The position numbers and the translations under genes are program-made. Source: Actinomycetes bacterium (GTDB lineage Bacteria > Actinomycetota > Humimicrobiia > Humimicrobiales > Humimicrobiaceae). From it: DNA of 64,000 nt. Of this stretch, positions 1 through 33,197 are shown one piece after another. Location of the stretch: NCBI GenBank assembly GCA_022396035.1, contig JAIOXO010000001.1, positions 129,769 to 193,768 on the forward strand. Reading direction: 5' to 3'. Under the pieces are notes generated by a model that saw nothing but the letters and a program-made list of their open reading frames with translations, was not told where the DNA came from and ran no database searches. Within the stretch, counting starts at the first letter, position 1, and each line of letters starts with the position of its first letter.

Positions 1-1530
1 GGGAAGGCAATCCTTGTATATGAACTTAGCCAGTGGGTGGAAGGTATTGATCCTGGTTGCCACAACCTGGGATATGATACAGTAAAATCCTTTAATGATG
101 ATAGGTTTGCAAGGGCTCTGGACAAATTATATCTAGCAGACCAGGCAACCCTTATGACAGAAATTGTGGTTAAAATGATAAAAAAAGTGGGTCTTGCTAT
201 GGGAAAGGTGCACAATGATTCTACTACAGTAAAAACTTACGGAAAAGTTTCAAGAAAAGCCAAGACAGGCCTAAAGATGACCAATGGAAAGAGCAAAGAA
301 TATAGACCTTATCTAAAACAATTGGTATTTAGATTAACTATACCTCAGACGGGGCAGTTCCCATACACTACAAAACATATCCTGGAAACAGAACTGATGA
401 TACCACCCATATAGAAACCTGGAACTACTTAAAAGCTATTATAGGCAGCAGCAATTTTACCTATGTAGCAGACTGCAAGGTAAGCACCCGGAGGCAGCTC
501 TCCTACATAGTTGAAAATGGGGGAAGGGTAATTACTACTATGCCCAATACCTGGAAAGAAGCAAAGGCCTTCAAAGAAGGCCTATGCTCTTCTAAGATAA
601 AAAGGAAGCTAATCTGGAAGAAAAAAATTGCCAGCACTCAGGAATTTGAATACTATAACCTGTTTTTAGGAGAACATACTACCATAGAGAGTGCTTACAA
701 GATCTACTGGTACTTATTCAGAACAAAGAAAAGGCTTGACCACAACTTAAGGGGTAAAAAGATGGGCAATGCAGAAAAGAAACTTTCAGGCCTTTCTGAA
801 TTGAATAAGAGAAAGTTCAGGGAAGAGGAAAATATAAAAGGTGAAATGGACAGGATATTAAAAACACACAAGGTGGAGGATTTTTTAATTGTAGATATCC
901 TAAAGGAGGAAAATGATGGGGAGAGGCAGGCCAGGGCCTAGTTCAAAATATAAAATACATAAAACAACCCACTACTCCCTATTATGGGAGAAAGACAAAG
1001 AAAGGGTGGCCTGCCAGAAAAAGGTTGACGGGATTTTTCCCTTCTTATTACCGATAGCTTAATTGGCCCCAAAGAGGTGCTTACCTCTTATAGATATCAG
1101 CCTAGGCTGGAGAAAAGATTTAACCAGTTTAACAGTGTACATGAGGCCTCTCCTATACTGTTTAAGAGAATTGAAAGGGTTGAAGGGATAATGTTTCTAT
1201 TCTTTGTACCGCTTAAAATCCAGGGGATAATTGAGAGAAAAGTAAGGCTTTACATGAAGGCAAGAAGCATTAACTCCCTGCTTATCTATCCTTAATACCG
1301 AAAATCTTTTTATCCCACCACTTCCAAGTATTTCTATAACTTTGATGGAATATCTTCGTATAAAATCATAAAAGATTGTAAGCTTGTAACAGAGTTTAAG
1401 AATGAGCTCTCCTCCACCCAGAAGATGATACCTGACCTACTGGATATGGATGAGGACAAATATTGGGAGATGGCAGCAAGTGATATGTGGAAAGAATTAA
1501 TTCAGGATTTTTGCGTTTTTAACTTGCCGA
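1..1530 (+). pseudogene. IS1634/IS4-like DDE transposase, 5'-truncated by the window edge and interrupted by a frameshift and stops
   Basis: ORFs 37..414, 540..941 and 1077..1295 are consecutive pieces of one transposase. Frame 1 switches to frame 3 near 365-370 (..YPGNRTDDTTHIETWNYLKAIIGSSNFTYVADCKVSTRRQLSYIVENGGRVITTMPNTWKEAKAF reads across the 415-540 gap in frame 3). A stop follows 941 and the reading frame resumes at 1077. The N-terminal DDRFARALDKLY motif is typical of IS1634-family transposases. Confidence 0.5.
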
Positions 1531-1593: not shown

Positions 1594-2400
1594 ATGGATA
1601 ACCAAAAGATAATTGAAGTTAAAAACCTATGCTATAAGTATCTTACCAGCAGAAGATTGGATGGAGGTTTTAGCAGTTACAGGGAAGTTTTAAAAGAAAT
1701 CAATTTTTCTGTCGAAAGGGGAGAAAAATTATCCATAATCGGTCCTAATGGTGCAGGAAAGTCAACTTTAATGCTGAATATTGCCGGTCTTATGGATGGA
1801 AAGTGCCGGTCGGGTGAAATATTTATATATGGCAAGAAATTAAATGAAAAGAATATTTATGATATCAGGGAAAAGATAGGATTTGTATTCCAGGACCCAA
1901 ATGACCAGTTGTTTTCAATAAAAGTTTTTGCTGATGTATCCTTTGGCCTTATAAATTATTTAAATAAAAAGAAAGACAGACGTGCTAAAAACAGGCAGTA
2001 TATAGAGGAAATTGTAAGAATTAGCTTAAGAAAAGTAAATCTGGGGAATATAGAGGATGAGATTCCCCATTTCTTGAGTTTTGGAGAAAAGAAACTTGTT
2101 TCTCTGGCTACAGTGCTATCTTATGATCCCGAAATACTGATTTTAGATGAGCCTTCAAGCAATCTTGACCCCAGAAATAGAGCTAACTTTATAAAGCTAA
2201 TTAAAGAAATGAATAAAACCACAATTATTGCTACCCATGATCTTGATTTGGCTTACGATTTTTCGGATAGGTGCATAATATTAAACCAGGGAGAGGTAGT
2301 ATTTGACGGCGATTCAAAAAAGATTTTAAATGAACGAGATTTTTTAAGGAATAATAGTCTGGATCTACCTTTATGCTTGAGAAAAACCGGCTGTATTTAG
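1594..2400 (+). CDS. ABC transporter ATP-binding protein (ECF/CbiO-type), orphan with no permease adjacent
   Basis: Walker A GPNGAGKST; ABC signature LSFGEKKLVSLA; Walker B ILILDEPSSNLD. An AT-rich promoter-like region lies at 1540-1593. Confidence 0.85.
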   Translation: MDNQKIIEVKNLCYKYLTSRRLDGGFSSYREVLKEINFSVERGEKLSIIGPNGAGKSTLMLNIAGLMDGKCRSGEIFIYGKKLNEKNIYDIREKIGFVFQDPNDQLFSIKVFADVSFGLINYLNKKKDRRAKNRQYIEEIVRISLRKVNLGNIEDEIPHFLSFGEKKLVSLATVLSYDPEILILDEPSSNLDPRNRANFIKLIKEMNKTTIIATHDLDLAYDFSDRCIILNQGEVVFDGDSKKILNERDFLRNNSLDLPLCLRKTGCI

Positions 2401-2506
2401 TGCCAAAATAAAGATTAACAGGTCTAGCCTTCTATTTTAACAATGATGTCACCTGCTGCTGAGGGTTATTTATGTAACTTGTAGTAAATTTTATAAGATA
2501 CATTTT

Positions 2507-3223
2507 TTAATATGCTTGCCCATTTTTAGCTATAAACAGTTTAAAGACGTCACCTAAAGCCAGGTTTTCTTCCCTTACTATTACCATTCCCACTTTCTTA
2601 ATATTTTGCCCCGTGTCCCTGTTTATGTTTATGCCTGTTAAAAGCCTGGTTATGGGATTAAGCAAATCCTGCAGGAAGGAAGCCAGCCTTCCCTTGCTCC
2701 TAACATGTTCAATCATAACTGCTCTTCCTTCCGGTTTTAACACCCTTTGAATTTCTTTAAGCCCTTTTACCGGATGGGGAACAGAGCAGAAAACAGTGCT
2801 GGTAATAACGTAATCAAAACTCTTAGATTCAAAAGCCAGATTTTCTACATCCATTTCGGCTAAAACAATATTCCTTCTGTTTGAGCCAGCAAGTTTTTTG
2901 CGGGCCCTATCAAGCATTCCTGCCGAAAAATCTATGCCTGTAACCTCTGCATCAGGGTGGTAATAATTAATGTTCTTGCCGGTGCCAATTCCCACATCTA
3001 AAATCTTTCCTGTAAGGGCTGAGAAATATTTTTTCCTCAGCCTAGAATAAAATAAATATTCCAGGGGAAATTCTACAAAGTCATAGAATCTTGCATTACG
3101 GTTATATTTTTTTTGTGATTTTAAAGCTTGCTCCACTTCATTCAACCTAAAACCCCTATAGCCATGCCCATTATAAATATGCTTTAACCCCAAGCCCATA
3201 TCCAATAGAGATAAATATTCCAC
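2507..3223 (-). CDS. Class I SAM-dependent methyltransferase
   Basis: Motif I ILDVGIGTGKN; GIDFSAGMLDRARKK; LKPEGRAVMIEH; typical Methyltransf_11/25 layout. Confidence 0.8.
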   Translation of the reverse strand: MEYLSLLDMGLGLKHIYNGHGYRGFRLNEVEQALKSQKKYNRNARFYDFVEFPLEYLFYSRLRKKYFSALTGKILDVGIGTGKNINYYHPDAEVTGIDFSAGMLDRARKKLAGSNRRNIVLAEMDVENLAFESKSFDYVITSTVFCSVPHPVKGLKEIQRVLKPEGRAVMIEHVRSKGRLASFLQDLLNPITRLLTGININRDTGQNIKKVGMVIVREENLALGDVFKLFIAKNGQAY

Positions 3224-3263
3224 GTCTTTAAACGCCTGTCTAATAACTTCCCCGGGCTTGCTT

Positions 3264-4082
3264 TTATTTATTAACCAGTTTATTCATGCTTCCCATACGG
3301 TAGCCATCAATATCCAGGGTTACATAAAGGTAGCCCTGATTCTTAAACTCACGTATTACATCTTCTGTTAAACTTCTATCTAAAAACTTTCCCAGTTCTT
3401 TTGACTGCACTTCTATCCTCGCTATACTGCCATGGTGCCTCACCCTTACTTGGGTAAATCCTTTATCTAACAGGAATGTTTCCAGTTTATCAATAATCCT
3501 TAACAGACGTTCGGTTATTTTGGTCCCGTAAGCTATCCTGCTTGCAAGGCAAGCAGAAGAAGGTCTGTCCCAGCCAGCAAGCCCCGTTTGCCTGGATAAA
3601 ATTCTTATCTCCTGTTTGCTTAGGTGGCAATATTTTAGAGGGCTCCTTACCCCCAATTGCTGGGCAGCCTTAGTGCCAGGCCTGTAATCTGAAATATCGT
3701 CCCAATTCTGCCCGTCCAGAACATTAGATATATTGTATTTCTTAGCTATTTCAATTATCTTCCCAAGCTCCCCGATTTTGCAGTAATAGCACCTTAGACG
3801 GTCATTATTTACAAAATTTGGGCCTTCAAGCCCGCTTTCTACCACCACATGCCTTACATGGTGTTTTTCTACAAATTCTGAGGCCCTATCCATATCCCTC
3901 CGGGGAGAAGAAGGAGATTTTAAGGTAATAGCCAAAACTTTTTTGCCCAAAACATCCGATGCTACTTTTACCAGGAAAGAGCTGTCTACCCCTCCAGAAA
4001 AGGCGACTGCCGCCCTTTCCATGGCTTTAAGCTCTGCTTTTAGCTTTAGAAATTTTTCCTCCGTAGTCTGCCTATCAGGCAC
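3264..4082 (-). CDS. LarE-family PP-loop ATP pyrophosphatase / ATP-dependent sulfur transferase
   Basis: PP-loop AVAFSGGVDSS. A LarE-like PSSACLASR motif contains the candidate sulfur-donor Cys. Additional Cys pair CYYCK. TIGR00268-like architecture. Overlaps or sits tight against neighbouring sulfur genes. Confidence 0.7.
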   Translation of the reverse strand: MPDRQTTEEKFLKLKAELKAMERAAVAFSGGVDSSFLVKVASDVLGKKVLAITLKSPSSPRRDMDRASEFVEKHHVRHVVVESGLEGPNFVNNDRLRCYYCKIGELGKIIEIAKKYNISNVLDGQNWDDISDYRPGTKAAQQLGVRSPLKYCHLSKQEIRILSRQTGLAGWDRPSSACLASRIAYGTKITERLLRIIDKLETFLLDKGFTQVRVRHHGSIARIEVQSKELGKFLDRSLTEDVIREFKNQGYLYVTLDIDGYRMGSMNKLVNK

Positions 4083-4100
4083 TTTTATCCGCCTTCCCTC

Positions 4101-5237
4101 CTATGTTAAAGCCCCCCTTATATCATTCTTTAAGTCTACCTTATTCTCTATTCCCACCGAAAGCCTTACCAGGTTATCATTAATTTGCCTTTCTTTTCTC
4201 TGGGCTGCTGAAAAAGCTGCATGGGTCATCCTGGGAGGATAGCATACCAGGGACTCTACTCCCCCTAAACTTTCTGCCAGCAGGAAAAGCTTAAGTTTTG
4301 ATATAAAGCTTTTTACTTCCTGGTACCCCCCTTTAAGCTCCAGGCTTATCATTGCCCCAAAGCCGCTCATCTGCCTGGAAGCAATATCATAATACCTGCT
4401 TTCAGGCAGCCCAGGATAGTATAATTTTTCTACTTTGGGATGCCTGTTAAGGTAATCTGCCAGGTACAGGGCATTTTTTTCATGCTCCCTCATCCTCACT
4501 GCCAGTGTTTTTATTCCCCTAATTGCCAGCCAGCAATCCCAGGGCCCGGGGATTGCACCAGCCGCATTCTGGTAAAACTTTAAGCGATTATGAATTCCCC
4601 TGTCTGAGGTAACTACTGCGCCTCCTACAATATCGCTATGACCGGATAAGTATTTAGTGGTGCTGTGCACCACTATATCTGCTCCCAAGGCCAATGGCTT
4701 CTGGAAATAAGGGGTGGCAAAGGTATTATCCACTGCCAGCATAATTTTTTTATCCCTGGCCAGGGTAGACAGCTTGCAGAGGTCGACTATCTTTAGCAGG
4801 GGATTAGTAGGAGTCTCCACCCAGATAAGCCTGGTATTTTTTTTCAGAGCTTTTTTAAAGCTTCCCATATCATCTACATTAGCATAGCTGGCCTTAAGAC
4901 CCCAGGGTGCAAAAACTTTTTCTATCAGGCGGTAGGTCCCCCCATATATGTCATCACCCACTACCACATGGTCCCCTGTTGAGAGCAAGCTGAACACGGC
5001 AGCTGTAGCCGCTACGCCCGAAGAGAAAGCAAGTCCATATTTTCCGCCCTCCAGTGAAGCCACCAGTTTTTGCAGTATATCTCTGGTGGGGTTACCGGTC
5101 CGCGAGTATTCATATCCCTTGTGTTTGCCAATTTCTTCCTGCTGGTAAGTAGAAGTCTGGTACACAGGGGTAGTCACCGCCCCTGTCAGAGGGTCAGGCT
5201 GCTGGCTGGAATGTATGGCTTTGGTCTCAAATTTCAT
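4101..5237 (-). CDS. Cys/Met-metabolism PLP enzyme, cystathionine gamma-lyase/gamma-synthase family (MccB/MetB-like)
   Basis: PLP-lysine motif STTKYLSGHSD. Full-length similarity to the Cys_Met_Meta_PP family. Overlaps the upstream CBS gene by 11 nt (translational coupling). Confidence 0.85.
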   Translation of the reverse strand: MKFETKAIHSSQQPDPLTGAVTTPVYQTSTYQQEEIGKHKGYEYSRTGNPTRDILQKLVASLEGGKYGLAFSSGVAATAAVFSLLSTGDHVVVGDDIYGGTYRLIEKVFAPWGLKASYANVDDMGSFKKALKKNTRLIWVETPTNPLLKIVDLCKLSTLARDKKIMLAVDNTFATPYFQKPLALGADIVVHSTTKYLSGHSDIVGGAVVTSDRGIHNRLKFYQNAAGAIPGPWDCWLAIRGIKTLAVRMREHEKNALYLADYLNRHPKVEKLYYPGLPESRYYDIASRQMSGFGAMISLELKGGYQEVKSFISKLKLFLLAESLGGVESLVCYPPRMTHAAFSAAQRKERQINDNLVRLSVGIENKVDLKNDIRGALT

Positions 5238-6597
5238 GGTTTCTCCTGTAAGACCAGTAGTTTATCAAATCAACCCTGGTAATTACCCCCACCGGGTTAT
5301 GGTTGCTGGCAACCACTATGGCAGTGTTGCCGGATAAAAGAATCCTGTAGGCTTCCAGCATATCAACATCCTGTTCCAGCATGGGAAGTGGACTTCCCAT
5401 AACTGAAGAAGCCTTTATATTCTCAAAATCTGTGCCATCATGCAATAACTTCATAACAGAAGCCTCATCCAAGCCTCCTGCCACCTGCTTCCCATCTATA
5501 ACCGGAAGCTGGGATATATTAAACTTTTGCATAAGCTTTACCGCTTTAGCCAGTGTATTCTGCGGGGTAACCGCTATTAATGCAGGAAAATTCCTCTTGT
5601 GGCCCATAACTTCCTTAATCCTGGTTGTTCTTGCCGCTTTACCCTCCCAAAACTCATTTTCCTTCATCCATTGGTCAGAAAAAATCTTTGTTAAATAGTT
5701 CCTTCCTGTATCCGGCAAAAGCACTACTATGTATTTGGGGTTTTTTAACCTACGGGCATAGCTTAAGGCACCTGCAACAGCAGTGCCTGATGACCCCCCT
5801 ACCAGCAAACCTTCTTCCCTGGCAAGGCGGCGAGCGGTATTAAAAGAATTTTTATCGCTAACCCTTACCATATGGTCAACTAATTGCCGGTTAAAGGTTT
5901 TAGGTATAAAATCCTCCCCTATCCCCTCTACCATGTATGACTTGGGGCTGTCACCGGAAAGTATGGAGCCTTCCGGATCCGCGCCTACAATCTCTATATC
6001 CGGATTTTTCTCTTTTAAGTATGCCGATACACCCGAAATAGTTCCCCCTGTACCCATGCCAGCCACGAATATCTCTACCTTTCCGGCAGAATCTTCCCAT
6101 ATTTCCGGCCCGGTAGTAAGATAATGTGCCCGGGGATTATTAGGGTTTTCAAACTGGTGGGGGCGGTATGCTCCCGGAAGCTCTTTGGCTAGCCTTCCTG
6201 CTACCCCGTTATAGCTTTCAGGAGAGTCCGGGGGAACCGAGGTGGGGACAATAACCACCTCTGCCCCATAACTTCTTAGCAGGCTGATTTTATCTCCGCT
6301 CATCTTATCAGGCATTACAAAAATGGTCCTATACCCTTTAATGGCTGCCGCCATAGCCAAGCCAACTCCGGTATTTCCTGCTGTAGCTTCAACAATGGTG
6401 CCTCCCGGCTTAAGGTGCCCATCTTTTTCTGCTGCTTCTATCATCTGCAGCGCTATCCTGTCTTTTACGCTTCCTCCCGGGTTAAGTGACTCAAGCTTTA
6501 CATATATGGTTGATTTTATGTTTTCTGTTATCCGGTTAAGCTTAACCAGGGGAGTTCTGCCGATTGCTTCAAGCACATTATTAAATTCTTTTCTCAT
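5227..6597 (-). CDS. Cystathionine beta-synthase (PALP domain plus C-terminal CBS-domain pair)
   Basis: The N-terminus RTPLVKLNRI..SVKDR and the Gly-rich loop GGTIVEATAGNTG are typical of CysK/CBS-fold enzymes. Two C-terminal CBS domains. Confidence 0.85.
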   Translation of the reverse strand: MRKEFNNVLEAIGRTPLVKLNRITENIKSTIYVKLESLNPGGSVKDRIALQMIEAAEKDGHLKPGGTIVEATAGNTGVGLAMAAAIKGYRTIFVMPDKMSGDKISLLRSYGAEVVIVPTSVPPDSPESYNGVAGRLAKELPGAYRPHQFENPNNPRAHYLTTGPEIWEDSAGKVEIFVAGMGTGGTISGVSAYLKEKNPDIEIVGADPEGSILSGDSPKSYMVEGIGEDFIPKTFNRQLVDHMVRVSDKNSFNTARRLAREEGLLVGGSSGTAVAGALSYARRLKNPKYIVVLLPDTGRNYLTKIFSDQWMKENEFWEGKAARTTRIKEVMGHKRNFPALIAVTPQNTLAKAVKLMQKFNISQLPVIDGKQVAGGLDEASVMKLLHDGTDFENIKASSVMGSPLPMLEQDVDMLEAYRILLSGNTAIVVASNHNPVGVITRVDLINYWSYRRNHEI

Positions 6598-7739
6598 GCC
6601 TCTTCTCCCCGCAGCCTTAAGGCATCATGCAAAAGGCTGTTTCCGTCACACTTGTAACAGTGGTTTTCATCTCCCCGGGGAATGCCAGAACTTTCTACAA
6701 TGTCCGCAGCTTCCAGGATTGTTTCCACAAACCATCTGCCTGCCGGGGGGCGGTGGCCTTCAAATCCTGACCCGGGATTGGGTGACCATACAAAAGGAAC
6801 CACATTAGCCCCCAGGCTGGTAACCGCCCTGACTCCTTCCAAAAATGTTTTTTTGGTCTCAATCCCCATAACAAATACGCCATATACGTTTCCTTCGCCA
6901 AATATTTTAACCGCAGCCCTTATGGACCTTAGAAAATCCTGGTGGCTGGTGCTTCCGGACTTGCCGGGACAGATTGCCTTATACAAAGCCTGGTCCCATA
7001 TTTCCATGGAAAAGCCAATTGACTCTATGCCGGTATCATAATACCTTTTTATTTCGTCCTCTCCCCGCGGTGGAGAGGGAAGTATTGTCCCCGGCACCCG
7101 GTCAAAACCAGTATGTTTTTTAATAGAATTTACAATTGCAGAAACCATCTCAATTTCTTTCTGGTGGCTAAAGCACCCTCCTGTGAGCAGGACATGCTTT
7201 ACCATGCCTTCTGAGAAGGCTTCCCGGGCTACTTCACCTATATCTTTTATATCTTTTTTCTTTAGCACAGCCTTATAAGTCCTAAAAGTTGAATTAAGGT
7301 TGCAAAAAAGGCATTGCTTGCCCTTGGCAAAATGACTGCAATAGTTCTGGTAACAGAAAAAAAGGCAATCCTGGCCGCCAATTTGCCCAATTTTAACCAT
7401 TTTCTGGTTGCTGCCGGTTTTCTTGCTGTAATATTTAGGCCTTAAAATCCATTCCAGCCTGCATATATCTTTTCCCCTGTAGCTAAGCATTAGCCCCTCC
7501 GTTGTTAAATCAGCCTTATACGGGGAGGCGCTGTTTTTTCTAAATTGGACAGTGGTGCCGTCAGGCAGCACAAAATCATCGGGAAGCAGCATCTGGGCAT
7601 GGTCTTCAAAATCCCACCCGAAAAGACCGTGGTTTTGCTCCTTATATATTTCACCCACCCCTTCAAGGGCCTGGGGAGTAGCCTGTATTCCCTCCACCAG
7701 CAACTCCGCCTTAATGTTTAAATACTTATACTTATCCAT
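6594..7739 (-). CDS. Cys-rich Fe-S / radical-SAM-like protein with a non-canonical cysteine motif, function unknown
   Basis: Cluster CLFFCYQNYCSHFAKGKQCLFC (Cx3Cx4Cx9Cx2C) instead of CxxxCxxC. A Gly-rich HVLLTGG resembles a SAM-binding GGE element. Extra C-terminal Cys pair CYKCDG. Embedded between metY and CBS with 4-nt overlaps. Confidence 0.4.
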   Translation of the reverse strand: MDKYKYLNIKAELLVEGIQATPQALEGVGEIYKEQNHGLFGWDFEDHAQMLLPDDFVLPDGTTVQFRKNSASPYKADLTTEGLMLSYRGKDICRLEWILRPKYYSKKTGSNQKMVKIGQIGGQDCLFFCYQNYCSHFAKGKQCLFCNLNSTFRTYKAVLKKKDIKDIGEVAREAFSEGMVKHVLLTGGCFSHQKEIEMVSAIVNSIKKHTGFDRVPGTILPSPPRGEDEIKRYYDTGIESIGFSMEIWDQALYKAICPGKSGSTSHQDFLRSIRAAVKIFGEGNVYGVFVMGIETKKTFLEGVRAVTSLGANVVPFVWSPNPGSGFEGHRPPAGRWFVETILEAADIVESSGIPRGDENHCYKCDGNSLLHDALRLRGEEA

Positions 7740-26650: not shown

Positions 26651-26892
26651 TTACATTTAAGGGAGAGGCTACTATCAGCTGATATCCGGCCGAAAGCCTG
26701 CTGCCACTATTGCCCGTTTTAAGCTAAAGGTACTTCTAAGCAGCCGGATAGAAATAAAGGCAGAGTATCGGGCAAGGTATACTCTCTTGCCAGGATAGAA
26801 AAACCTAAAGCTAAAGGAGGCTAGAAGGTTAAAAAAGACAGAAGGATTACTCATAAAAAGGTAAAACGTATGGATCCCATAGCTTTGACAGG

Positions 26893-26927
26893 TATTAATA
26901 TGGTGGAGGCGGCGGGAATCGAACCCG
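26893..26927. repeat. Direct repeat (attL-like): duplicated 3' end of ssrA (27 nt of the tmRNA acceptor/T-arm plus 8 nt of downstream flank)
   Basis: tattaatatggtggaggcggcgggaatcgaacccg is 35/35 identical to 32837..32871, which forms the authentic tmRNA 3' end. Confidence 0.7.
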
Positions 26928-27101
26928 AAGGTTACTGCATCTTAATAGCTATTATGCACAGTTATTGGGTATTGCCTTATAGGGCCTTCCCTATATCTGA
27001 CCTGCTAAAGTTTAGAATTCAGGATTTGTTCCAATTTATTTGCTTTTATGGGGTTGTGTTCAGTCCTTGACATTTTCTTGACATCTAAGACCAAAACCTT
27101 G

Positions 27102-28130
27102 TTATTGGGGGTAATAGAGGTCCTGATACCACTGGACCCAATCAGTTGATAACGGGTTATCTACTTCCTTCACTCTTTTTATAAGCTTATCGGATGTAAA
27201 TGCGAAAAATCTATCGCTGTGGTCTATTAGCTTCTCATATTTTGATATGGTTGGCTCTAGTGATTTGTTGTCAGGATGATAAACAACTGAAAAATATACC
27301 TTTTTATATGGCCATTGAGATGGGCTGGAAGATTCAATACTTGTAGCAAGGAGCTGATTGCGCCATAACTGGTTCATACCCCCCTTAAAGGGGCATTGGT
27401 CATATTTACTGATCAGGTCAGCCTTAAATGGAGATACCTCTCCCAGAGTAATGTTCCAATAGCTGTAGTTACACTTGCTATGATAATAGCAGCGATTAGG
27501 ATCCTTAAGTATTGAACTTGCAGGATAGCATTTATGGCATGGCAAACATCCTTTGGCTTTATATCCCCCACAGGTGGTAAATTCTTTTTCAGTCAATTTA
27601 TGTTCGATTAACCACAGGTTAAGATTGCCCTCATAATCATAATAGGCAATCGCTATATCTGCATCAGTACCGCTTGCCTTATTGTGATCACGTAGCATAT
27701 TATCCGGCTCATCCCAAAACTCGATTCTAAATCCACTGTCAAGAAAGCCAGTTGCGATCTGTTTGAGATCTTCTTTAACACAGCTTAAAACCTTATCAGC
27801 AGTGTTGGGATCTTCCAATATTGGTAAAAATAAGTTGGCGCATGCGGCTTGAGAGCTTGCCATGTTAGCCCCTAAAAACTTATGACTCTTAAAATGTAAT
27901 TTCTGCTGATGGGATAAGAAGTGTTTCTTTACACTCGGGTATAACGGATACAATTGGCCCCTTAACTTGTCAGGGATAAACAAGTCGTAATAAATACCTC
28001 TATATAAACCTGGGTCCTTGCATATATTGGCCCATTTCCAGTCAATTAAATGAGTATATATCTTAAGCTGAAAGTCTGTAAGCACACTAGGAAGCCGGTA
28101 TTCTTTTCCGTTTATTTTATAAATCTTCAT
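27102..28130 (-). CDS. PD-(D/E)xK-like nuclease-fold protein with a C-terminal Cys-rich zinc ribbon, uncharacterised
   Basis: Candidate catalytic core D..(DADIAIAYY)..LWLIEHK (D / E-x-K). CxxC-rich segment CGGYKAKGCLPCHKCY...CYYHSKC. No signal peptide. 22-nt gap to the upstream EEP gene (operon). Confidence 0.4.
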   Translation of the reverse strand: MKIYKINGKEYRLPSVLTDFQLKIYTHLIDWKWANICKDPGLYRGIYYDLFIPDKLRGQLYPLYPSVKKHFLSHQQKLHFKSHKFLGANMASSQAACANLFLPILEDPNTADKVLSCVKEDLKQIATGFLDSGFRIEFWDEPDNMLRDHNKASGTDADIAIAYYDYEGNLNLWLIEHKLTEKEFTTCGGYKAKGCLPCHKCYPASSILKDPNRCYYHSKCNYSYWNITLGEVSPFKADLISKYDQCPFKGGMNQLWRNQLLATSIESSSPSQWPYKKVYFSVVYHPDNKSLEPTISKYEKLIDHSDRFFAFTSDKLIKRVKEVDNPLSTDWVQWYQDLYYPQ

Positions 28131-28151: not shown

Positions 28152-28883
28152 CTAAAAATCCATTTCAATTAATACTATATTGTGATCGCTAAATCTTCTG
28201 ACCTCTTCATTGTCTAGGATCTCATATTTTAAAAACATGCCCTTAAGGGAATTGCTCATAAAAAAGTAGTCATTTTGCCAGGTTTTTTTACTTTTTGCAT
28301 GACGAAGTTTTTGCACATAATCTTTGTTATCAGATAACTTGTAAACATCACTTAATCCAAAATCCTTGATTCTATCAAAAAGAATCTGGTGAGACCTGTT
28401 ACCCTGAATATCATCGAGCTGTGTGCTTGCATTTAGGTCACCGCCCATTACAATCTTTCTATTCCCTCCGATGTGCCCATTAAACAGACCGGTTAGGTCT
28501 GATATTATCCGATGAAGGTTTGTAATGGAATACCCTTTGCAAGGGCCATTGGATTCCATAAGGCCATACAGGGATATAAAGGTTATCATATGGCCACCTA
28601 TTTTTATATTTCCAATTACAAAGGCTCCCCTAAATTGTGTATCTAGTTCCTCTTGGACTAACTTGTACTTTGGACTGTAAATGCCTGAACCCCAATTGCG
28701 GCTTTGGCCAATCATTTCCCAAACAAGGTTAGCCTCCTGGTTTTTTATTTCCTTGGTTGGGCTTGCTTCCTGGAAAAGATAGATATCCGCTTTTACACCA
28801 TTTAAGAAGTAATCCCATGCTTGGCCCTGCAAGGATTGGTGTTTCCAGTAATCCATATTCCAGGTTGTAATTCTTATAATCAT
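28152..28883 (-). CDS. Endonuclease/exonuclease/phosphatase (EEP, DNase I-like) family protein, cytoplasmic
   Basis: All EEP catalytic motifs present: ITTWN (Asn), YLFQE (Glu), GGDLN (Asp/Asn), SDHN (Asp-His). No signal peptide. Confidence 0.8.
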   Translation of the reverse strand: MIIRITTWNMDYWKHQSLQGQAWDYFLNGVKADIYLFQEASPTKEIKNQEANLVWEMIGQSRNWGSGIYSPKYKLVQEELDTQFRGAFVIGNIKIGGHMITFISLYGLMESNGPCKGYSITNLHRIISDLTGLFNGHIGGNRKIVMGGDLNASTQLDDIQGNRSHQILFDRIKDFGLSDVYKLSDNKDYVQKLRHAKSKKTWQNDYFFMSNSLKGMFLKYEILDNEEVRRFSDHNIVLIEMDF

Positions 28884-29057: not shown

Positions 29058-29490
29058 TTCATATATACTTAAAGTAAAAAAGGGTTATCTAAAAATCCCT
29101 GTTTTTGCTCGTTAATTAGCTCCTATTCAACCTTTATTTCACCATTAAAAAAAATAACTGTAATGCTGCTTTTACTCTATTGTCAGCTATTGCCTAAATT
29201 ATGAAATGCTAAAAATTACTGTCGGCCCGTTTTATATAGCAAAAACCCAAGAAATATTTCTCGGGAAGCTATCTTCTTATTCTTTATTGTTCGATACTAT
29301 TCTTTGCCCATGGAATAGGACAAGCTTCGAACCTATTTGGTGGGAAAACAATCAATAAAATTCACCTATCTTATTCAATCTCTGCACCTGCAATTTCTAT
29401 TACGGTGAGAGACTGGACAGCCTCGAACTTATTCAATTAAAATTTATCTTTCTTACGCATCAAACCAACCTTCAGTACATACACCAGCTT

Positions 29491-29540
29491 TTTTTATTTG
29501 AAATAAAAGGAAGACCGCCTATTAAGCGATCTTCCCTTGT
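29491..29540 (-). terminator. Rho-independent terminator after the secreted-protein gene
   Basis: Minus-strand hairpin GGAAGATCGC..GGCGGTCTTCC followed by TTTTATTT, immediately 3' of the stop at 29550. Confidence 0.5.
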
Positions 29541-29549
29541 GATTAGTCG

Positions 29550-30548
29550 TTATTGTCTAATCATATTCCACTCTGCAGGTTCTCCATCTTCGCCCCTGTA
29601 CTCTCCATCATTACCATGTCTACTTATGCCACTAGCTGTATCACAATCAACCATGATGCCCTCATATTCTGCGAAGTAACCATCATCAACGTAACCTTCT
29701 CTGTTGTAATGCATTTCGATTATATCTCCCACGACAGTGCCTTCGATATTGCCCCAGATAATGTTTTCATCTGGGTGCCACCTTTTACCAGTAAACGTCC
29801 CATCTGCTTGCTGCTCATCTATGACTATTAAACTGGTACTCCTAGTTCCTACTGTCTGAGACCAAGTGCCAATTATGTCATGGCTGAGCTGGAACTCACT
29901 TGATAGGGCGCTAGTGCCTGTCCAATTTCTAATTTCAGAGTCTTTGACCCAAATCCTGAGCTGATATGTTCCAACTGTTTCATAAGACAACCCCTCAAAT
30001 ATGACTTCACCATTAGCATCTGTGAACTCAGAACCTGGGAAATCTTTTTCTCTTATTAAACTTGCCTTCATTTCAAGGCCTTCAACAGGATTGCCGTGAA
30101 CGTCTTTCACTATAGCAGTTGGATAGTTACCTTCAAGGTCTTTAATCTCTTGGCACACAAAACCGTCTGCAATATCTACCACATATTCTATAGACAGACC
30201 TGTTGGAATACCCGCTCCTAACCCTACCAGATAGTTGTATACTGCCTGATAATAAGCCTCTTCGTCACACTTTTCTATAAAGGTTTCTCCGTCCCAATCA
30301 CCATACCAATTATAGGCCGGGAACGCAGCCTTGTTAGTCATTGTCTGGGCAACATCTCTAATGTAGTTGCCTCCATCACGACCCGATCCATATCGAGCAT
30401 CTACCCCTGCTTCTTCTAATAGTTGACCTGCTATATCGGGTGCCGCAAGACACTCATCAGTATTATTTTCTTCTCCCAGTAATACAGCCGGAAAACTGAA
30501 CATAACCACCAGCGATATCACCAGTATTGCAATTATTAGCTTTTTCAC
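29550..30548 (-). CDS. Secreted acidic hypothetical protein (Sec signal peptide)
   Basis: MKKLIIAILVISLVVMFSFPAVLLG signal; no recognisable catalytic motif; preceded by a paralogous structured leader. Confidence 0.55.
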   Translation of the reverse strand: MKKLIIAILVISLVVMFSFPAVLLGEENNTDECLAAPDIAGQLLEEAGVDARYGSGRDGGNYIRDVAQTMTNKAAFPAYNWYGDWDGETFIEKCDEEAYYQAVYNYLVGLGAGIPTGLSIEYVVDIADGFVCQEIKDLEGNYPTAIVKDVHGNPVEGLEMKASLIREKDFPGSEFTDANGEVIFEGLSYETVGTYQLRIWVKDSEIRNWTGTSALSSEFQLSHDIIGTWSQTVGTRSTSLIVIDEQQADGTFTGKRWHPDENIIWGNIEGTVVGDIIEMHYNREGYVDDGYFAEYEGIMVDCDTASGISRHGNDGEYRGEDGEPAEWNMIRQ

Positions 30549-30635
30549 GATTTCCCCCTCTTATATGTTTTATAATTTGTTAAACTGGTTTAAGAATAAA
30601 ACAGCCCCTCTCTCTAAACATTGTATTTTTCTTAG

Positions 30636-30740
30636 AAATAAAAAACCGACCAAACTTAAATCAATTTAGTCGGTTACGCTACTCACTCCACTTCCCTAAG
30701 CGTCCATCTTTGGGTAAGCTTCAGTGTACCTAAATTATTA
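30636..30740 (-). promoter_or_regulatory. Structured 5' leader element, copy 1 (conserved stem-loop, alternative pairing, intrinsic terminator); candidate riboswitch/attenuator
   Basis: Paralogous to 32128-32232. Minus strand reads GAAGCTTACCCAAAGATGGACGCTTAGGGAAG..AGTAGCGTAACCGAC-loop-GTCGGTTTTTTATTT. The terminator hairpin sits about 90 nt upstream of the start codon. ACGCT in the first loop can pair with AGCGT abutting the terminator 5' arm. Confidence 0.45.
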
Positions 30741-31000
30741 TATATGTATTAAATTATTATAATGTTTCAATGTAATATAATTATATTTTAATGTCAATTA
30801 ATAATTTGTTTATTTCGTGACCAATTAACTTTGCTAAACTACTTCTTATTAAACCCTTGCCGTTTTCAGCACTCAACCTACGATTGGCGCTAAAAGGTAA
30901 TGGTCCCTTAGAATTGTCTGACGGTTATATAGTGGAGGCGACAGAAATCGCATTTCTTAAGAATCAGATATTCAAAACCCAACATTGCACATTATATATG

Positions 31001-31075
31001 CATAGCTTCTTCCTAATATAGGAAGAGATGCTGCGTAAAACCATTTGAAGATATGCTGGCAAGGGGATCTTTATA
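31001..31075. repeat. Conserved palindromic element, copy 2 (GCATAGCTTCTTCC-taatata-GGAAGAGATGC...)
   Basis: Homologous to 28989-29057; central inverted repeat TCTTCCTA-TAT-TAGGAAGA; located 60 nt 3' of the LPXTG gene stop. Confidence 0.5.
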
Positions 31076-31080
31076 AACAA

Positions 31081-31114
31081 ATAAGCGGGCACCTATTTTT
31101 AGATGCCCGCTTAT
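31081..31114 (-). terminator. Rho-independent terminator after the LPXTG-protein gene
   Basis: Perfect hairpin ATAAGCGGGCA..TGCCCGCTTAT followed by a T-rich tract on the minus strand. Confidence 0.45.
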
Positions 31115-31134
31115 CTAGACCCGTATTAATAATT

Positions 31135-32088
31135 TTAAGGAGTATTCCTTCTTAGCTTATTTGCTGCAACCATGAGGCCGCCGCCGGCAACAAGCATTCC
31201 CAGTCCCATAAAGACATATACCCAATCAAATCCGGTATAGGGTAGTTCTTCGGTAACACCTAATACTTCTACAGTTTCTTCGGTTATTCCTGCTGTTTCC
31301 ACTACTTCTTCCCCGGAGACTGTAACTTCTTCAACTTTCCCCATAATTCCAAAGTCTACATAAATAGAGTGATCTGCAGAGACATTTTCAAATGTGTATG
31401 TTTCTACTGCTCCTATGTATGCTCCATCAACCGAAACATCGGAAATCTCATAATTTTCATCCCTGGGTGTTATTGTATAGGTCTGGTTTTCACCCTCTGT
31501 TACTGCTAGCTCACCAAGGGGGGTTATAGTTCCACCATTACCAGTTGAAGAAGTTATAACATATGTAGCAAGAGGCAGCACTTCAACTGCCAGAGATGAA
31601 ACCGGTGTACTTTTTTTGGGCTCTTCATTTTGTTTTTCAGTTACAGTAATAGTAGATGTGGATTCATCACTTCCATTCCCATCTCCATCTGGTGTGAAAT
31701 AATTGTAAGTAACTGTAGCCTTATTTATCAACTCTCCAATGTCATCTTCTGTAACAACATATTCGTAATTAATGGTGTAAGGAAAATCATCTTTAAATAG
31801 GGTACCGATATCTCCTTTTTCACCTAAATCTACGAGGCTATCCACCACCTTAACATTCCGGAATTCTTCTCCAAGTCCTGACAAATCAAGTTGTTGCGCA
31901 TTGGCAACATATCCATCTACTCCCTCTTCTGGATTTGGAGGTGAACTTTGATAACTTAAGACTATAGTATGGGTTACAGTATCTCCCGGGTTGGCTTCAG
32001 TCTTGTCAGCAGATTTGCTTATAGATACGCAACCGGACATAAATACCACTAATCCAATTAGTGTAGCGATAGTTAAAAACTTTTTCAT
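31135..32088 (-). CDS. Cell-surface protein with lipoprotein-type signal peptide and C-terminal LPXTG (LPYTG) sortase anchor
   Basis: Probable true start at the MKKFLTIATLIGLVVFMSGC lipobox; the ORF track starts 10 codons earlier at 32118. C-terminal LPYTG plus a hydrophobic stretch plus KLRRNTP. Acidic repeat-rich body. Confidence 0.7.
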   Translation of the reverse strand: MKKFLTIATLIGLVVFMSGCVSISKSADKTEANPGDTVTHTIVLSYQSSPPNPEEGVDGYVANAQQLDLSGLGEEFRNVKVVDSLVDLGEKGDIGTLFKDDFPYTINYEYVVTEDDIGELINKATVTYNYFTPDGDGNGSDESTSTITVTEKQNEEPKKSTPVSSLAVEVLPLATYVITSSTGNGGTITPLGELAVTEGENQTYTITPRDENYEISDVSVDGAYIGAVETYTFENVSADHSIYVDFGIMGKVEEVTVSGEEVVETAGITEETVEVLGVTEELPYTGFDWVYVFMGLGMLVAGGGLMVAANKLRRNTP

Positions 32089-32127
32089 TACTTGTCTTTC
32101 TTTGTAGTAATTTATCAAAACTCTAAT

Positions 32128-32232
32128 TAAAAAATAAAAAACCGACTAATTAAATTTAGTCGGTTACGCTACTTGCTCTGCTTTTCCCAAGCGTCCAGAT
32201 TCGAGAAAAGCTTCAAAGCATCTAAATCTTAT
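32128..32232 (-). promoter_or_regulatory. Structured 5' leader element, copy 2 (paralogue of 30636-30740)
   Basis: Same architecture: stem GCTTTTC..GAAAAGC (a compensatory change relative to copy 1's CTT(A)CCC/GGGAAG), conserved TGGACGCTT loop, AGTAGCGTAACCGAC, and terminator ACCGACTAAAT..ATTTAGTCGGT plus T7. Confidence 0.45.
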
Positions 32233-32836
32233 ACATATATCAACTTTTTATAAAAAAAGAAGTTTAGTTTAATTATATTTTAAAGTCAAGCAGGTTTTCC
32301 AGACAGGTAATAAGAATCAAGAAAAGGGTGAAAAGGATTGGTCCCGAGGCAGTAATTGGTGGCAACAGGAAAAGGAAGCCAACAAATGCAATAGAAGATA
32401 TGCTAAAGGGTCTGGTAGTAAAACTTAAGAAAGGACTATCTCCTACCATACTGGAATGCGCCTTGGTGGGGTGCTGGCTCTGTCCTTGGATTTGGTATTC
32501 TTAAAGGTTAAAACTATTGCAGTAAAAAGGTAACATACCTTAAAAGATGGAAATCCCATTCTAAAAAAGCCCAAATTCTTGCAAGAACTAGCTTCCCACT
32601 CTTTAGGCAGTCCGCCTCTTAATAATCAACCCTTAGATCTTTTAAGTATATAAATGACTTTGGGCATTTTTTGTGCTGAAGATTGAATTTGCCAAGCCAA
32701 ATCCTTGAAATTTTGGAACATGCATTCTCTGAGCTTGAATCCAAAAGGGGTTACTTCTCAGCACATCCTTGTCATTTTCAGCACCCAGCCCACAAGGGTT
32801 GATGCTAAAATACATGGATCTCATGAGTTTAGCAGT

Positions 32837-32871
32837 TATTAATATGGTGGAGGCGGCGGGAATCGAACCCG
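32837..32871. repeat. Direct repeat (attR-like) overlapping the genuine 3' end of ssrA
   Basis: Identical 35-mer to 26893..26927. Confidence 0.7.
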
Positions 32872-33197
32872 CGTCCGAAGATATTGCCACTTAAACTTCT
32901 ACAAGCTTATCCCTTATTTTAATTTCGCTGTCATGTCTGGTAAGGGCACCATCCATAAAAGCTATCCCGCATAAATTTCCCCTGCTATACCTGCGGACAA
33001 GGTATAACCGGGTATCCTGCTAAACGTCGCCTATCGAAAAGCACAGGAAACCTCCCGTAGACGAGCAACGTTAAACTACGCCGCTAAAGCTAACTGTGAA
33101 TCGTCAGCATTTATGTTTAGTTTCAGCTTTTTACGAGTTCTGATACTCGGCTTGCCATCCAAGCTCAACCTATCCCCGTCGAATCCAATTCGCCCCC
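32845..33197 (-). ncRNA. ssrA: tmRNA (transfer-messenger RNA)
   Basis: 5' end GGGGGCGAAUUGGAUUCGACGGGGA and 3' end UUCGGACGCGGGUUCGAUUCCCGCCGCCUCCACCA closely match E. coli tmRNA termini. Acceptor stem has the G3:U70 Ala identity pair. Internal tag reading frame GCT GAC GAT TCA CAG TTA GCT TTA GCG GCG TAG gives ADDSQLALAA* (33108..33076). Located immediately downstream of smpB. Confidence 0.9.

Follow-up and report, generated by a model that had tools for sequence, protein, structure and literature searches.

The closest described counterparts of the leaders analysed here are found in Clostridioides difficile 630, where Cdi-2-3 and Cdi-2-1 precede the genes for the sortase substrates CD2831 and CD3246, and Cdi-2-4 precedes pilA1 (PMC6200980; PMC11477304). 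The class II cyclic-di-GMP (c-di-GMP) riboswitches of this organism are uniformly ON switches, two of which control sortase substrates, and they act in vivo at the level of transcription on cell-wall-anchored surface proteins or adhesion structures, so that high c-di-GMP leads to production of a surface adhesin (PMC6200980; PMC11477304). The aptamer from Clostridium acetobutylicum (PDB 3Q3Z, Smith et al. 2011) adopts a kinked pseudoknot fold that includes a kink-turn (PMC7288161), a feature of class II riboswitches described in PMC4316175, and the same fold is predicted here. The c-di-GMP-II-GAG and c-di-GMP-II-GCG variants (RF03169 and RF03170; clan CL00127) share both overall fold and clan with the elements reported below. 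The fold of c-di-GMP-I (GEMM) riboswitches is unrelated, although the Bc2 representative, located upstream of a Bacillus thuringiensis gene for a collagen adhesion protein, shares the ligand and the logic of adhesin control (PMC4933901).

We analysed a 64 kb stretch of DNA (the window) from an uncultured bacterium, in which a sequence-only reading had noted paralogous leaders with built-in terminators ahead of two surface-protein genes and had proposed them as a novel riboswitch or attenuator. Both leaders belong, as ordinary representatives, to the already described class II c-di-GMP riboswitch family, which also includes Cdi-2-3, Cdi-2-1 and Cdi-2-4, and they do not represent a new RNA class. 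In contrast to the C. difficile elements, their closest relatives are found in uncultured MAGs labelled Actinomycetota, and ON switching is predicted here from sequence. The regulated proteins are unrelated to the C. difficile targets, one being a small InlB-B-repeat/DUF11-like protein with an LPYTG signal and the other a secreted protein, and the group I ribozyme through which Cdi-2-1 acts is absent. A PPEP-1/ZmpI-type counter-regulated protease, a feature of C. difficile, was not seen in the window.

Family assignment and gene arrangement

Rfam analysis of the 64 kb window revealed matches to RF01786 in both leaders, with riboswitch B scoring 73.8 bits (E 9.7e-15) and riboswitch A 54.3 bits (E 3.1e-09), in each case over model positions 1-84 of 84. 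With such E-values for the whole 64 kb window the matches lie far beyond chance. The gathering score of the family is 53.5 bits, a threshold that element A clears by only 0.8 bits. Since both elements are full-length matches above this threshold, the claim of novelty is not supported. On the basis of family membership the expected ligand is c-di-GMP, one of the ligands suggested in the sequence-only reading. The comparison made at that time with c-di-GMP-I concerned the wrong class and the shared GGACGC is coincidental; no match to c-di-GMP-I (RF01051) or to another riboswitch was found in the region 30400..32400 even at E up to 10. The search itself works, as the RF01051 model picks up a true GEMM element in a different locus (L011). 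Sub-threshold Rfam matches in the region (L20_leader, MIR2119, snoU49 and others) were dismissed as chance matches to terminator-like or AT-rich sequence, the spurious L20_leader match being to the same hairpin as the terminator that follows gene B.

Canonical RF01786 is also the best-scoring member of the clan for both window elements. The GAG variant consensus has G at the position of canonical A69 (…GGCGAGACCG versus …GUGCAACCG), a variant-defining position that we deduced by comparing Rfam consensus lines, PMC5737381 being silent on these variants. Membership of either the GAG variant (consensus …GCGAGACCG) or the GCG variant (GCG at that position) was rejected, since both window elements read …GCGUAACCG and retain A69.

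Each of the two genes very probably forms its own transcription unit, consisting of a promoter, a c-di-GMP-II riboswitch, an intrinsic terminator and an open reading frame, with the riboswitch predicted to act as an ON switch that responds to c-di-GMP. Both elements are situated on the coding strand between a predicted promoter, from which transcription would start, and the open reading frame, and are followed by a terminator (Table 1). The terminator after gene B separates unit B from unit A. The alignment of leaders A and B begins at the -35 box and continues to the end of the terminator, and promoter B has conserved counterparts in paralog A and, as TTGACT...TATACT, in the L123 ortholog.

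Table 1. Features of the two riboswitch-gene units (positions in the window)
Feature	Description	Position	Strand	Basis
Predicted sigma-70-type promoter, unit B	TTGACT, 17 nt spacer, TAAACT	32261..32289	-	Consensus scan
Riboswitch B aptamer	c-di-GMP-II class: P1, P2 with kink-turn, P3, pseudoknot, AACCGAC core	32149..32232	-	RF01786
Intrinsic terminator, leader B	10-bp stem AACCGACUAA/UUAGUCGGUU and U-tract	32130..32165	-	Terminator scan, folding
Gene B	317 aa; lipoprotein-type N-terminal signal (…FMSGC), C-terminal sortase sorting signal	31135..32088	-	Translation
Intrinsic terminator after gene B	AAGCGGGCAUCU…AGGUGCCCGCUU and U-rich tail	31073..31112	-	Read from sequence
Predicted promoter, unit A	TTGACA, 17 nt spacer, TACATT; paralogous to promoter B	30769..30797	-	Consensus scan
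Riboswitch A aptamer	c-di-GMP-II class: borderline score, bulged P3, G at A13-equivalent	30659..30740	-	RF01786
Intrinsic terminator, leader A	13-bp stem and U-tract	30634..30675	-	Terminator scan, folding
Gene A	332 aa; N-terminal signal peptide, GTG start, predicted secreted	29550..30548	-	Translation

The sequence features on which the earlier proposal was built are real and all lie on the minus strand, namely the loop UGGACGCUU and the core AGUAGCGUAACCGAC, each common to both leaders, together with the terminators and the compensatory stems. Its limits were drawn too narrowly: the 5' stem-loop exists and corresponds to helix P3, but the element reaches ~25 nt further in the 5' direction, and P1 and the P2 kink-turn had been missed. 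The spacing of about 95 nt ahead of the start codon that had been given for both genes is approximately right for element A, in which ~90 nt separate the end of the U-tract from the GTG codon at 30548, but not for element B, in which the corresponding distance to the ATG codon at 32088 is ~45 nt.

The sorting signal of gene B comprises EELPYTG, a hydrophobic segment and KLRR, and its product shows weak LPXTG_anchor and DUF11-repeat matches. Homologs of this protein contain InlB-B-repeat, DUF11 and DUF7507 domains and possess the same EELPYTG tail. An ortholog with 73% amino acid identity in an independent Actinomycetota MAG is preceded by the same promoter, riboswitch (71.3 bits) and terminator, and has an EAL-domain gene nearby; two more LPYTG homologs have an upstream element (65.8 bits and 42.1 bits). 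Gene A has a strong Shine-Dalgarno sequence (GAGGGGG), and its product lacks an anchor motif, the sole family match being a weak one to Big_1 (E 7e-4, below the cutoff). The existence of riboswitches with a built-in intrinsic terminator ahead of genes for surface or secreted proteins, as first described, is supported, and it is possible that these proteins have an adhesive role. Genes encoding GGDEF, EAL, HD-GYP or sortase proteins were not found in the 64 kb window, so that we infer the capacity of this organism for c-di-GMP signalling only from the related MAG. Units A and B are both located on an island of ~5.9 kb whose boundaries are marked by a repeated tmRNA 3' end; no integrase remnants were found in the ORF-poor parts of this island.

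Aptamer architecture and conservation among relatives

In the window elements P1 is formed by AUUUAG/CUAAAU, and the 8-bp P1 is intact in element A. In both elements the pseudoknot joins ACGCU in the P3 loop (positions 39-43) to AGCGU in the 3' tail (positions 63-67), and thus has the form ACGC/GCGU as opposed to the family consensus GCAC/GUGC, two pairs being changed on both sides. The kink-turn between P2 and P3 of element B consists of a UUU bulge followed by G19 and A20 opposite G55 and A56, and element A has an ACU bulge with the same GA/GA pairs.

The presumed correspondence of residues to those of 3Q3Z was drawn from a secondary source and the crystallised sequence. The ligand contacts listed for that structure are A13, U37, G39, A61, C68, A69, A70, C71, C72, G73 and A74 (PMC7288161). 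Element B retains all of these except C68, which is replaced by U and compensated by a change of its partner G40 to A. The same C68 to U and G40 to A replacements distinguish element A from 3Q3Z, together with a change of A13 to G. Both window elements keep U37, G39, A61 and A69-A74, and in both the kink-turn has its G-A/A-G pairs. Next to the pocket, the pseudoknot thus has an A-U pair where the consensus has G-C, and this pair involves a position (C68) that is among the listed contacts. A full-text literature search for the core strings (GCGUAACCGAC and similar) found no experimentally validated class II riboswitch with an ACGC/GCGU pseudoknot.

A search model built from the two window elements and nine Rfam-confirmed relatives retrieved 104 elements from 100 sources among public genomes, demonstrating that the element is widely conserved beyond this duplication, a point on which the sequence-only reading had made its proposal depend. 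The class II structure is paired in 84.6% of cells in this set, compared with 58.9% in shuffles, none of 500 shuffles attaining the observed value, and pairing falls to 30-42% when the partners are slid. Pairing reaches 93% in P2 and 95% in P3, and changes on both sides are observed for all three P2 pairs, all eight P3 pairs and the inner pairs of P1, while in the 11-bp P1 of the model the outer half is paired in no more than ~50% of relatives. The alignment was fitted to the model, and the search pattern fixed most core positions and four pseudoknot pairs, the latter being uninformative in this set; the fifth pseudoknot pair, the only one left unfixed, is U-A in some sequences but has become C-G in 23. 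The tandem-pair positions of the kink-turn are G/A in 92-104 of the 104 relatives.

The two paralogs in the window likewise differ from each other by compensatory changes, with G-C replaced by A-U in P2 and U-A by C-G in P3, where the stems are GCUUUUCU/GGAAAAGC in B and GCUU(A)CCC/GGGAAGU in A. Half of the relatives (52/104) have the same arrangement of a core-overlapping GNCGG terminator with a T-run, and signal-peptide-like N-termini were recognised, by a crude heuristic, in 59 of 88 distinct downstream proteins. Some relatives recovered by the pattern search score best with the GAG model (L011 and L092).

Predicted switching and competing explanations

The terminator scan identified AACCGACTAAATTTAATTAGTCGGTT with TTTTATTTTT in leader B (32165..32140) and AACCGACTAAATTGATTTAAGTTTGGTCGGTT with TTTTATTTCT in leader A (30675..30644). 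In leader B the 5' arm of the terminator is composed of the aptamer core and the 4 nt with which the P1 3' strand begins, and in leader A it extends over the AACCGAC core and all of the P1 3' strand that is paired. Because the core and the P1 3' strand double as the terminator arm, a ligand-bound aptamer excludes the terminator, and from this mutually exclusive folding a transcriptional ON switch is predicted. The terminator fold is calculated at -30.4 kcal/mol in leader B, versus -17.6 kcal/mol for the best structure that contains P1 (a gap of ~13 kcal/mol), and at -29.9 versus -8.7 kcal/mol in leader A (a gap of ~21 kcal/mol).

According to the mechanism that we propose, the aptamer would be assembled from P1, P2 with its kink-turn, P3 and the pseudoknot in which ACGCU of the P3 loop pairs with AGCGU of the 3' tail, with the c-di-GMP pocket formed by the conserved A61 and U68-A69-A70-C71-C72-G73-A74. 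Without ligand the far more stable terminator hairpin would fold, and transcription would halt ahead of the open reading frame. Binding of c-di-GMP during transcription would lock the core and P1 in the aptamer, such that the terminator could not nucleate and RNA polymerase would read through. High c-di-GMP would then induce the sortase-anchored (LPYTG) surface protein and the secreted protein. Most likely these are two genes for secreted or cell-wall-anchored proteins that are turned on at high c-di-GMP.

This picture may apply less well to element A, which could be a decaying or retuned copy with much weaker or no useful binding of c-di-GMP, serving mostly as a constitutive attenuator and leaving B as the only working switch. 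Its score lies close to the gathering threshold, G occupies the position of A13, a ligand contact, P3 contains a bulged A and P2 a U-G pair, and the terminator of leader A is longer (13 bp) with the larger gap to the aptamer fold (~21 kcal/mol). Nevertheless, the remaining contact nucleotides, the kink-turn, the pseudoknot and the 8-bp P1 are all intact. The G at A13 occurs in 21 of the 104 relatives and hence is a recurrent natural state, and the compensatory nature of the P2 and P3 differences between A and B indicates ongoing selection for the fold. On balance we consider such decay or retuning of element A unlikely.

It is highly improbable that, by virtue of the pocket-adjacent pair A40-U68 in place of G40-C68, the fold senses not c-di-GMP but some other ligand, for instance pGpG or a second cyclic dinucleotide. 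Position 68 does belong to the ligand-contact list, the Rfam clan has separate variant families defined by changes that adjoin it (RF03169), and in GEMM-I single-nucleotide changes switch specificity to cGAMP. Against this, A40-U68 is a compensated Watson-Crick swap within the pseudoknot helix, A69 and A70, which separate the GAG and GCG variants, are unchanged, and for both window elements the variant models score lower than the canonical one. The gene context, with surface and secreted proteins and the EAL neighbour of the ortholog, is moreover a classic one for c-di-GMP. There is a similarly slim chance that the A40-U68 subtype, and especially element A with its G at A13, is shifted from c-di-GMP in ligand specificity or affinity, perhaps in favour of another dinucleotide, cyclic or linear. 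In that case an uncultured lineage labelled Actinomycetota would possess, in the pair on the tmRNA-integrated island, a signalling cassette with two thresholds that is horizontally mobile.

Even less probable is OFF switching by the leaders, or control of translation, in place of transcriptional ON switching. Output mechanisms do vary within the class, as one C. difficile class II aptamer acts via a ribozyme and translation initiation (PMC11477304). Here, in contrast, the terminator 5' arm is itself aptamer sequence, a geometry that yields an ON switch, each ribosome-binding site is found 30-90 nt past the U-tract and is unpaired with the aptamer sequence, and Rfam gave no ribozyme match.

The original suggestion of an undescribed riboswitch or protein-dependent attenuator, in which an ACGCU/AGCGU antiterminator competes with a terminator inside a conserved leader, is effectively refuted and retains next to no likelihood: the complementarity exists, but it matches, position for position, the class-defining pseudoknot of a curated and structurally solved family, a pairing that forms in the ligand-bound aptamer, both elements are full-length, above-threshold members of that family, and AGCGU (positions 63-67) lies outside the terminator arm (positions 68-77), so that this pairing alone cannot exclude the terminator.

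Reading of the raw sequence did spot a real riboswitch, yet a standard Rfam/Infernal scan names it immediately. With the leaders taken as class II c-di-GMP ON switches, riboswitch-gene cassettes are found at a tmRNA integration hotspot, and the locus provides a further case of c-di-GMP-II control over sortase substrates outside Clostridioides. The main value of the result lies in correct annotation, in that two hypothetical proteins of an uncultured bacterium, surface or secreted, gain a regulator and a likely signal, c-di-GMP.

Two members of the c-di-GMP-II riboswitch class

The sequence-only reading had described the leaders of the two surface-protein genes, A and B, as carrying a candidate novel riboswitch or attenuator, and had suggested a search against Rfam. 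Scanning of the whole window at the gathering threshold gave three matches: tmRNA and, each covering the full length of the model, two hits to the c-di-GMP-II riboswitch aptamer RF01786, both above its gathering score of 53.5. This class was described in 2010 and its structure was solved in 2011. Judged from their sequences, both elements are standard members that are detectable by routine Rfam annotation; the earlier reading was right to infer a terminator-bearing riboswitch that controls surface proteins, and wrong in its claim of novelty. A permissive Rfam scan (E up to 10) of positions 30400..32400 detected no other riboswitch family, including c-di-GMP-I, with which the earlier reading had noted only a shared GGACGC.

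Features of the riboswitch units and the repeat-bounded segment (window positions)
Feature	Position	Strand	Detail
REase-ARP/PD-(D/E)XK nuclease gene	27102..28130		within repeat-bounded segment
EEP-like gene	28152..28883		within repeat-bounded segment
Gene A	29550..30548	minus	leader 5' of gene
Terminator stem, leader A	30675..30644	minus	terminator scan; followed by TTTTATTT
Riboswitch A aptamer, RF01786	30659..30740	minus	54.3 bits, E 3.1e-09, full-length
Terminator after gene B	31073..31112	minus	belongs to unit B
Gene B	31135..32088	minus	leader 5' of gene
Terminator stem, leader B	32165..32140	minus	terminator scan; followed by TTTTATTT
Riboswitch B aptamer, RF01786	32149..32232	minus	73.8 bits, E 9.7e-15, full-length
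tmRNA	32845..33197	minus	Rfam, gathering threshold

The motifs and hairpins originally noticed are present in both leaders, since the terminator scan and the alignment of the leaders agree with them: UGGACGCUU and AGUAGCGUAACCGAC (minus strand, window sequence) are common to A and B, as is the hairpin ACCGAC…GUCGGU followed by a U-run, and the leaders can be aligned from the TTGAC -35 box to the terminator. The proposed spacing of about 95 nt to the start codon holds for A only, the gap in B being about 45 nt, and the element reaches about 25 nt farther 5' than was described. Its 5' stem-loop corresponds to helix P3 (GCUUUUCU/GGAAAAGC in B, GCUU(A)CCC/GGGAAGU in A), 5' of which are found P1 (AUAAGAUUUAG paired with CUAAAUUUAAU) and P2 (UGC/GCA in B, UAC/GUG in A). 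A kink-turn, made of a 3-nt bulge followed by tandem G-A/A-G pairs, occurs in both elements. The ACGCU/AGCGU pairing, previously interpreted as an antiterminator, does not overlap the terminator arm and is instead the defining pseudoknot of the c-di-GMP-II fold, in which the P3 loop pairs with the 3' tail. The family consensus for this pseudoknot is GCAC/GUGC, from which the window elements differ on both sides at two pairs.

Conservation, covariation and the ligand pocket

At least 120 loci in species-representative genomes match a pattern based on the loop and core; among the matches listed these are mostly from Clostridia, Chloroflexota, Actinomycetota-labelled MAGs and Patescibacteria. The closest relatives among the BLASTN matches listed are Actinomycetota-labelled MAGs, and Rfam confirms these as c-di-GMP-II. 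A covariance model trained on both window elements together with nine relatives confirmed by Rfam identified 104 elements in 100 sources among the matches listed and 31 further elements in the remaining loci; it found no third copy in the window. In the 104-sequence alignment, which was fitted to the model and has the core and four pseudoknot pairs fixed by the search pattern, 84.6% of cells pair in the class II structure with the pseudoknot counted, compared with 58.9% in the shuffle control (0 of 500 shuffles were as high as observed) and 30-42% when the 3' partners were slid. Changes on both sides are seen at every pair of P2 (paired in 93% of cells) and P3 (95%). The single pseudoknot pair left free by the search pattern alternates between U-A and C-G, and only some 50% of the sequences pair in outer P1. 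Several related loci (L076 6714..7094, L048 364..737, L015, L075, L006, L069 and others) place two or three c-di-GMP-II aptamers 5' of one gene, over a few hundred nt, which could represent tandem riboswitches or small intervening ORFs.

The Clostridium acetobutylicum structure 3Q3Z has c-di-GMP contacts at A13, A14, U37, G39, U60, A61 and C68-A74 (reviewed in PMC7288161). Element B retains A13, U37, G39, A61 and A69-A74. C68 is replaced by U in both window elements and its pseudoknot partner G by A, and this pocket-adjacent A-U pair may alter affinity. A14 and U60 form the first P2 pair, which is freely variable across the family. The A13 position is G in element A, as in 21 of the 104 relatives, and element A may be less than fully functional. 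Comparison of consensus lines indicates that the variant motifs c-di-GMP-II-GAG and -GCG, which belong to the same Rfam clan, carry G in place of the canonical A69. This residue is kept in both window elements, which are therefore canonical at that position. Two related loci (L011 2001..2087 and L092 4440..4525) have the GCGUAACCG core as in the window and keep A69, yet score best with the c-di-GMP-II-GAG model, and hence Rfam assignment among clan members is unreliable for the variant-defining nucleotide.

Expression platform

The terminator 5' arm extends over A68-A77 in B and A68-U80 in A, and is composed of the conserved AACCGAC pocket sequence and the P1 3' strand. In nearest-neighbour folding of the full leaders the minimum-free-energy structure contains the terminator, and even the most favourable fold with the aptamer helices is less stable by about 13 kcal/mol in B and about 21 kcal/mol in A. 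This preference argues that the terminator hairpin would form without ligand, with termination as the predicted default. The ligand-bound aptamer, folded co-transcriptionally, would sequester the terminator 5' arm and allow read-through, which would make each element an ON switch. Of the 104 relatives, 52 share this layout, with the core followed by a short loop, GNCGG and a T-run. Class II riboswitches have been described as transcriptional ON switches, and in Clostridioides difficile a rise in c-di-GMP increases the downstream transcript for all four of them (PMC6200980; PMC11477304). The direction predicted for the window elements agrees with these experiments; for the window elements themselves, ligand binding, direction of regulation and transcription starts are inferred.

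Genomic setting and regulated genes

Upstream, the window encodes secA, prfB, ftsE, ftsX, an M23 peptidase gene, ctpA, smpB and ssrA, and downstream pntAB, lgt and metal-transport genes. Release factor 2 is encoded by prfB (37876..~38980, minus) over two frames that are split near ~38914; the split sits at a CTT TGA motif and represents the programmed +1 frameshift classically known from prfB, so that a pseudogene was rejected.

A 35-nt sequence (CGGGTTCGATTCCCGCCGCCTCCACCATATTAATA, 32837..32871), made up of the tmRNA gene's 3' end and 8 nt flanking it, has an exact copy downstream at 26893..26927 (minus), with partial similarity for about 40 nt more. These repeats bound a segment of about 5.9 kb, containing both riboswitch units and the nuclease and EEP-like genes, that resembles an island integrated at ssrA; a search of the segment for an integrase or integrase remnant found none. 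The only other assembly with gene B is a 3.4 kb contig (Logan SRR12088348), 100% identical to window 29411..32866, which ends exactly inside the tmRNA-end repeat; this end point is consistent with a break in the assembly at that repeat or with sample heterogeneity in island presence. The locus of the gene B ortholog (L123, JAQVDY010000033.1) has, 5' of the gene B cassette, an att-like sequence that matches the tmRNA end (97% over 39 nt) and is joined to sequence like window 26889..27096, the other island junction (L123 1..209). Just 3' of the ortholog are genes for a hybrid histidine kinase, a PAS response regulator and an EAL-domain protein (2269..7096). From this junction and neighbour arrangement, relatives differ in the order of cassettes at the hotspot. 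The 64-kb window itself has no gene for a GGDEF or EAL protein or a sortase.

Because gene B is followed by a terminator of its own and leader A has a separate promoter, the two units are independent. The gene A product (332 aa) has a signal peptide and a sole, sub-threshold family match to Big_1. The gene B product (317 aa) has a lipoprotein-type signal (…FMSGC), weak matches to LPXTG_anchor and DUF11, and a C-terminus in which EELPYTG is followed by a hydrophobic segment and KLRR, the whole being a sortase sorting signal; its homologs contain InlB-B-repeat, DUF11 and DUF7507 domains. The ortholog, 73% identical and from an Actinomycetota MAG (GCA_028698215.1), has the same predicted promoter, a riboswitch that scores 71.3 bits and a terminator identical to that of B, and two remoter LPYTG homologs have upstream elements at 65.8 bits and 42.1 bits, the latter below threshold. 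The ortholog aptamer (L123 516..599) maintains its score with C for the kink-turn A (GUGCAGC versus UUGAAGC) and A for G62 (AAAUAGCG).

LAXTG signals are typical of Actinobacteria class E sortases. Downstream of a riboswitch (3..87) in Actinobacteria bacterium ADurb.Bin346 (L052), a 786-aa protein has LAFTG at its C-terminus, followed by a hydrophobic segment and RRRRK, and is by these features a second riboswitch-controlled sortase substrate in the group. The case of gene B is closely parallel to that of two sortase substrates of C. difficile, CD2831 and CD3246, whose expression class II riboswitches control (PMC11477304).
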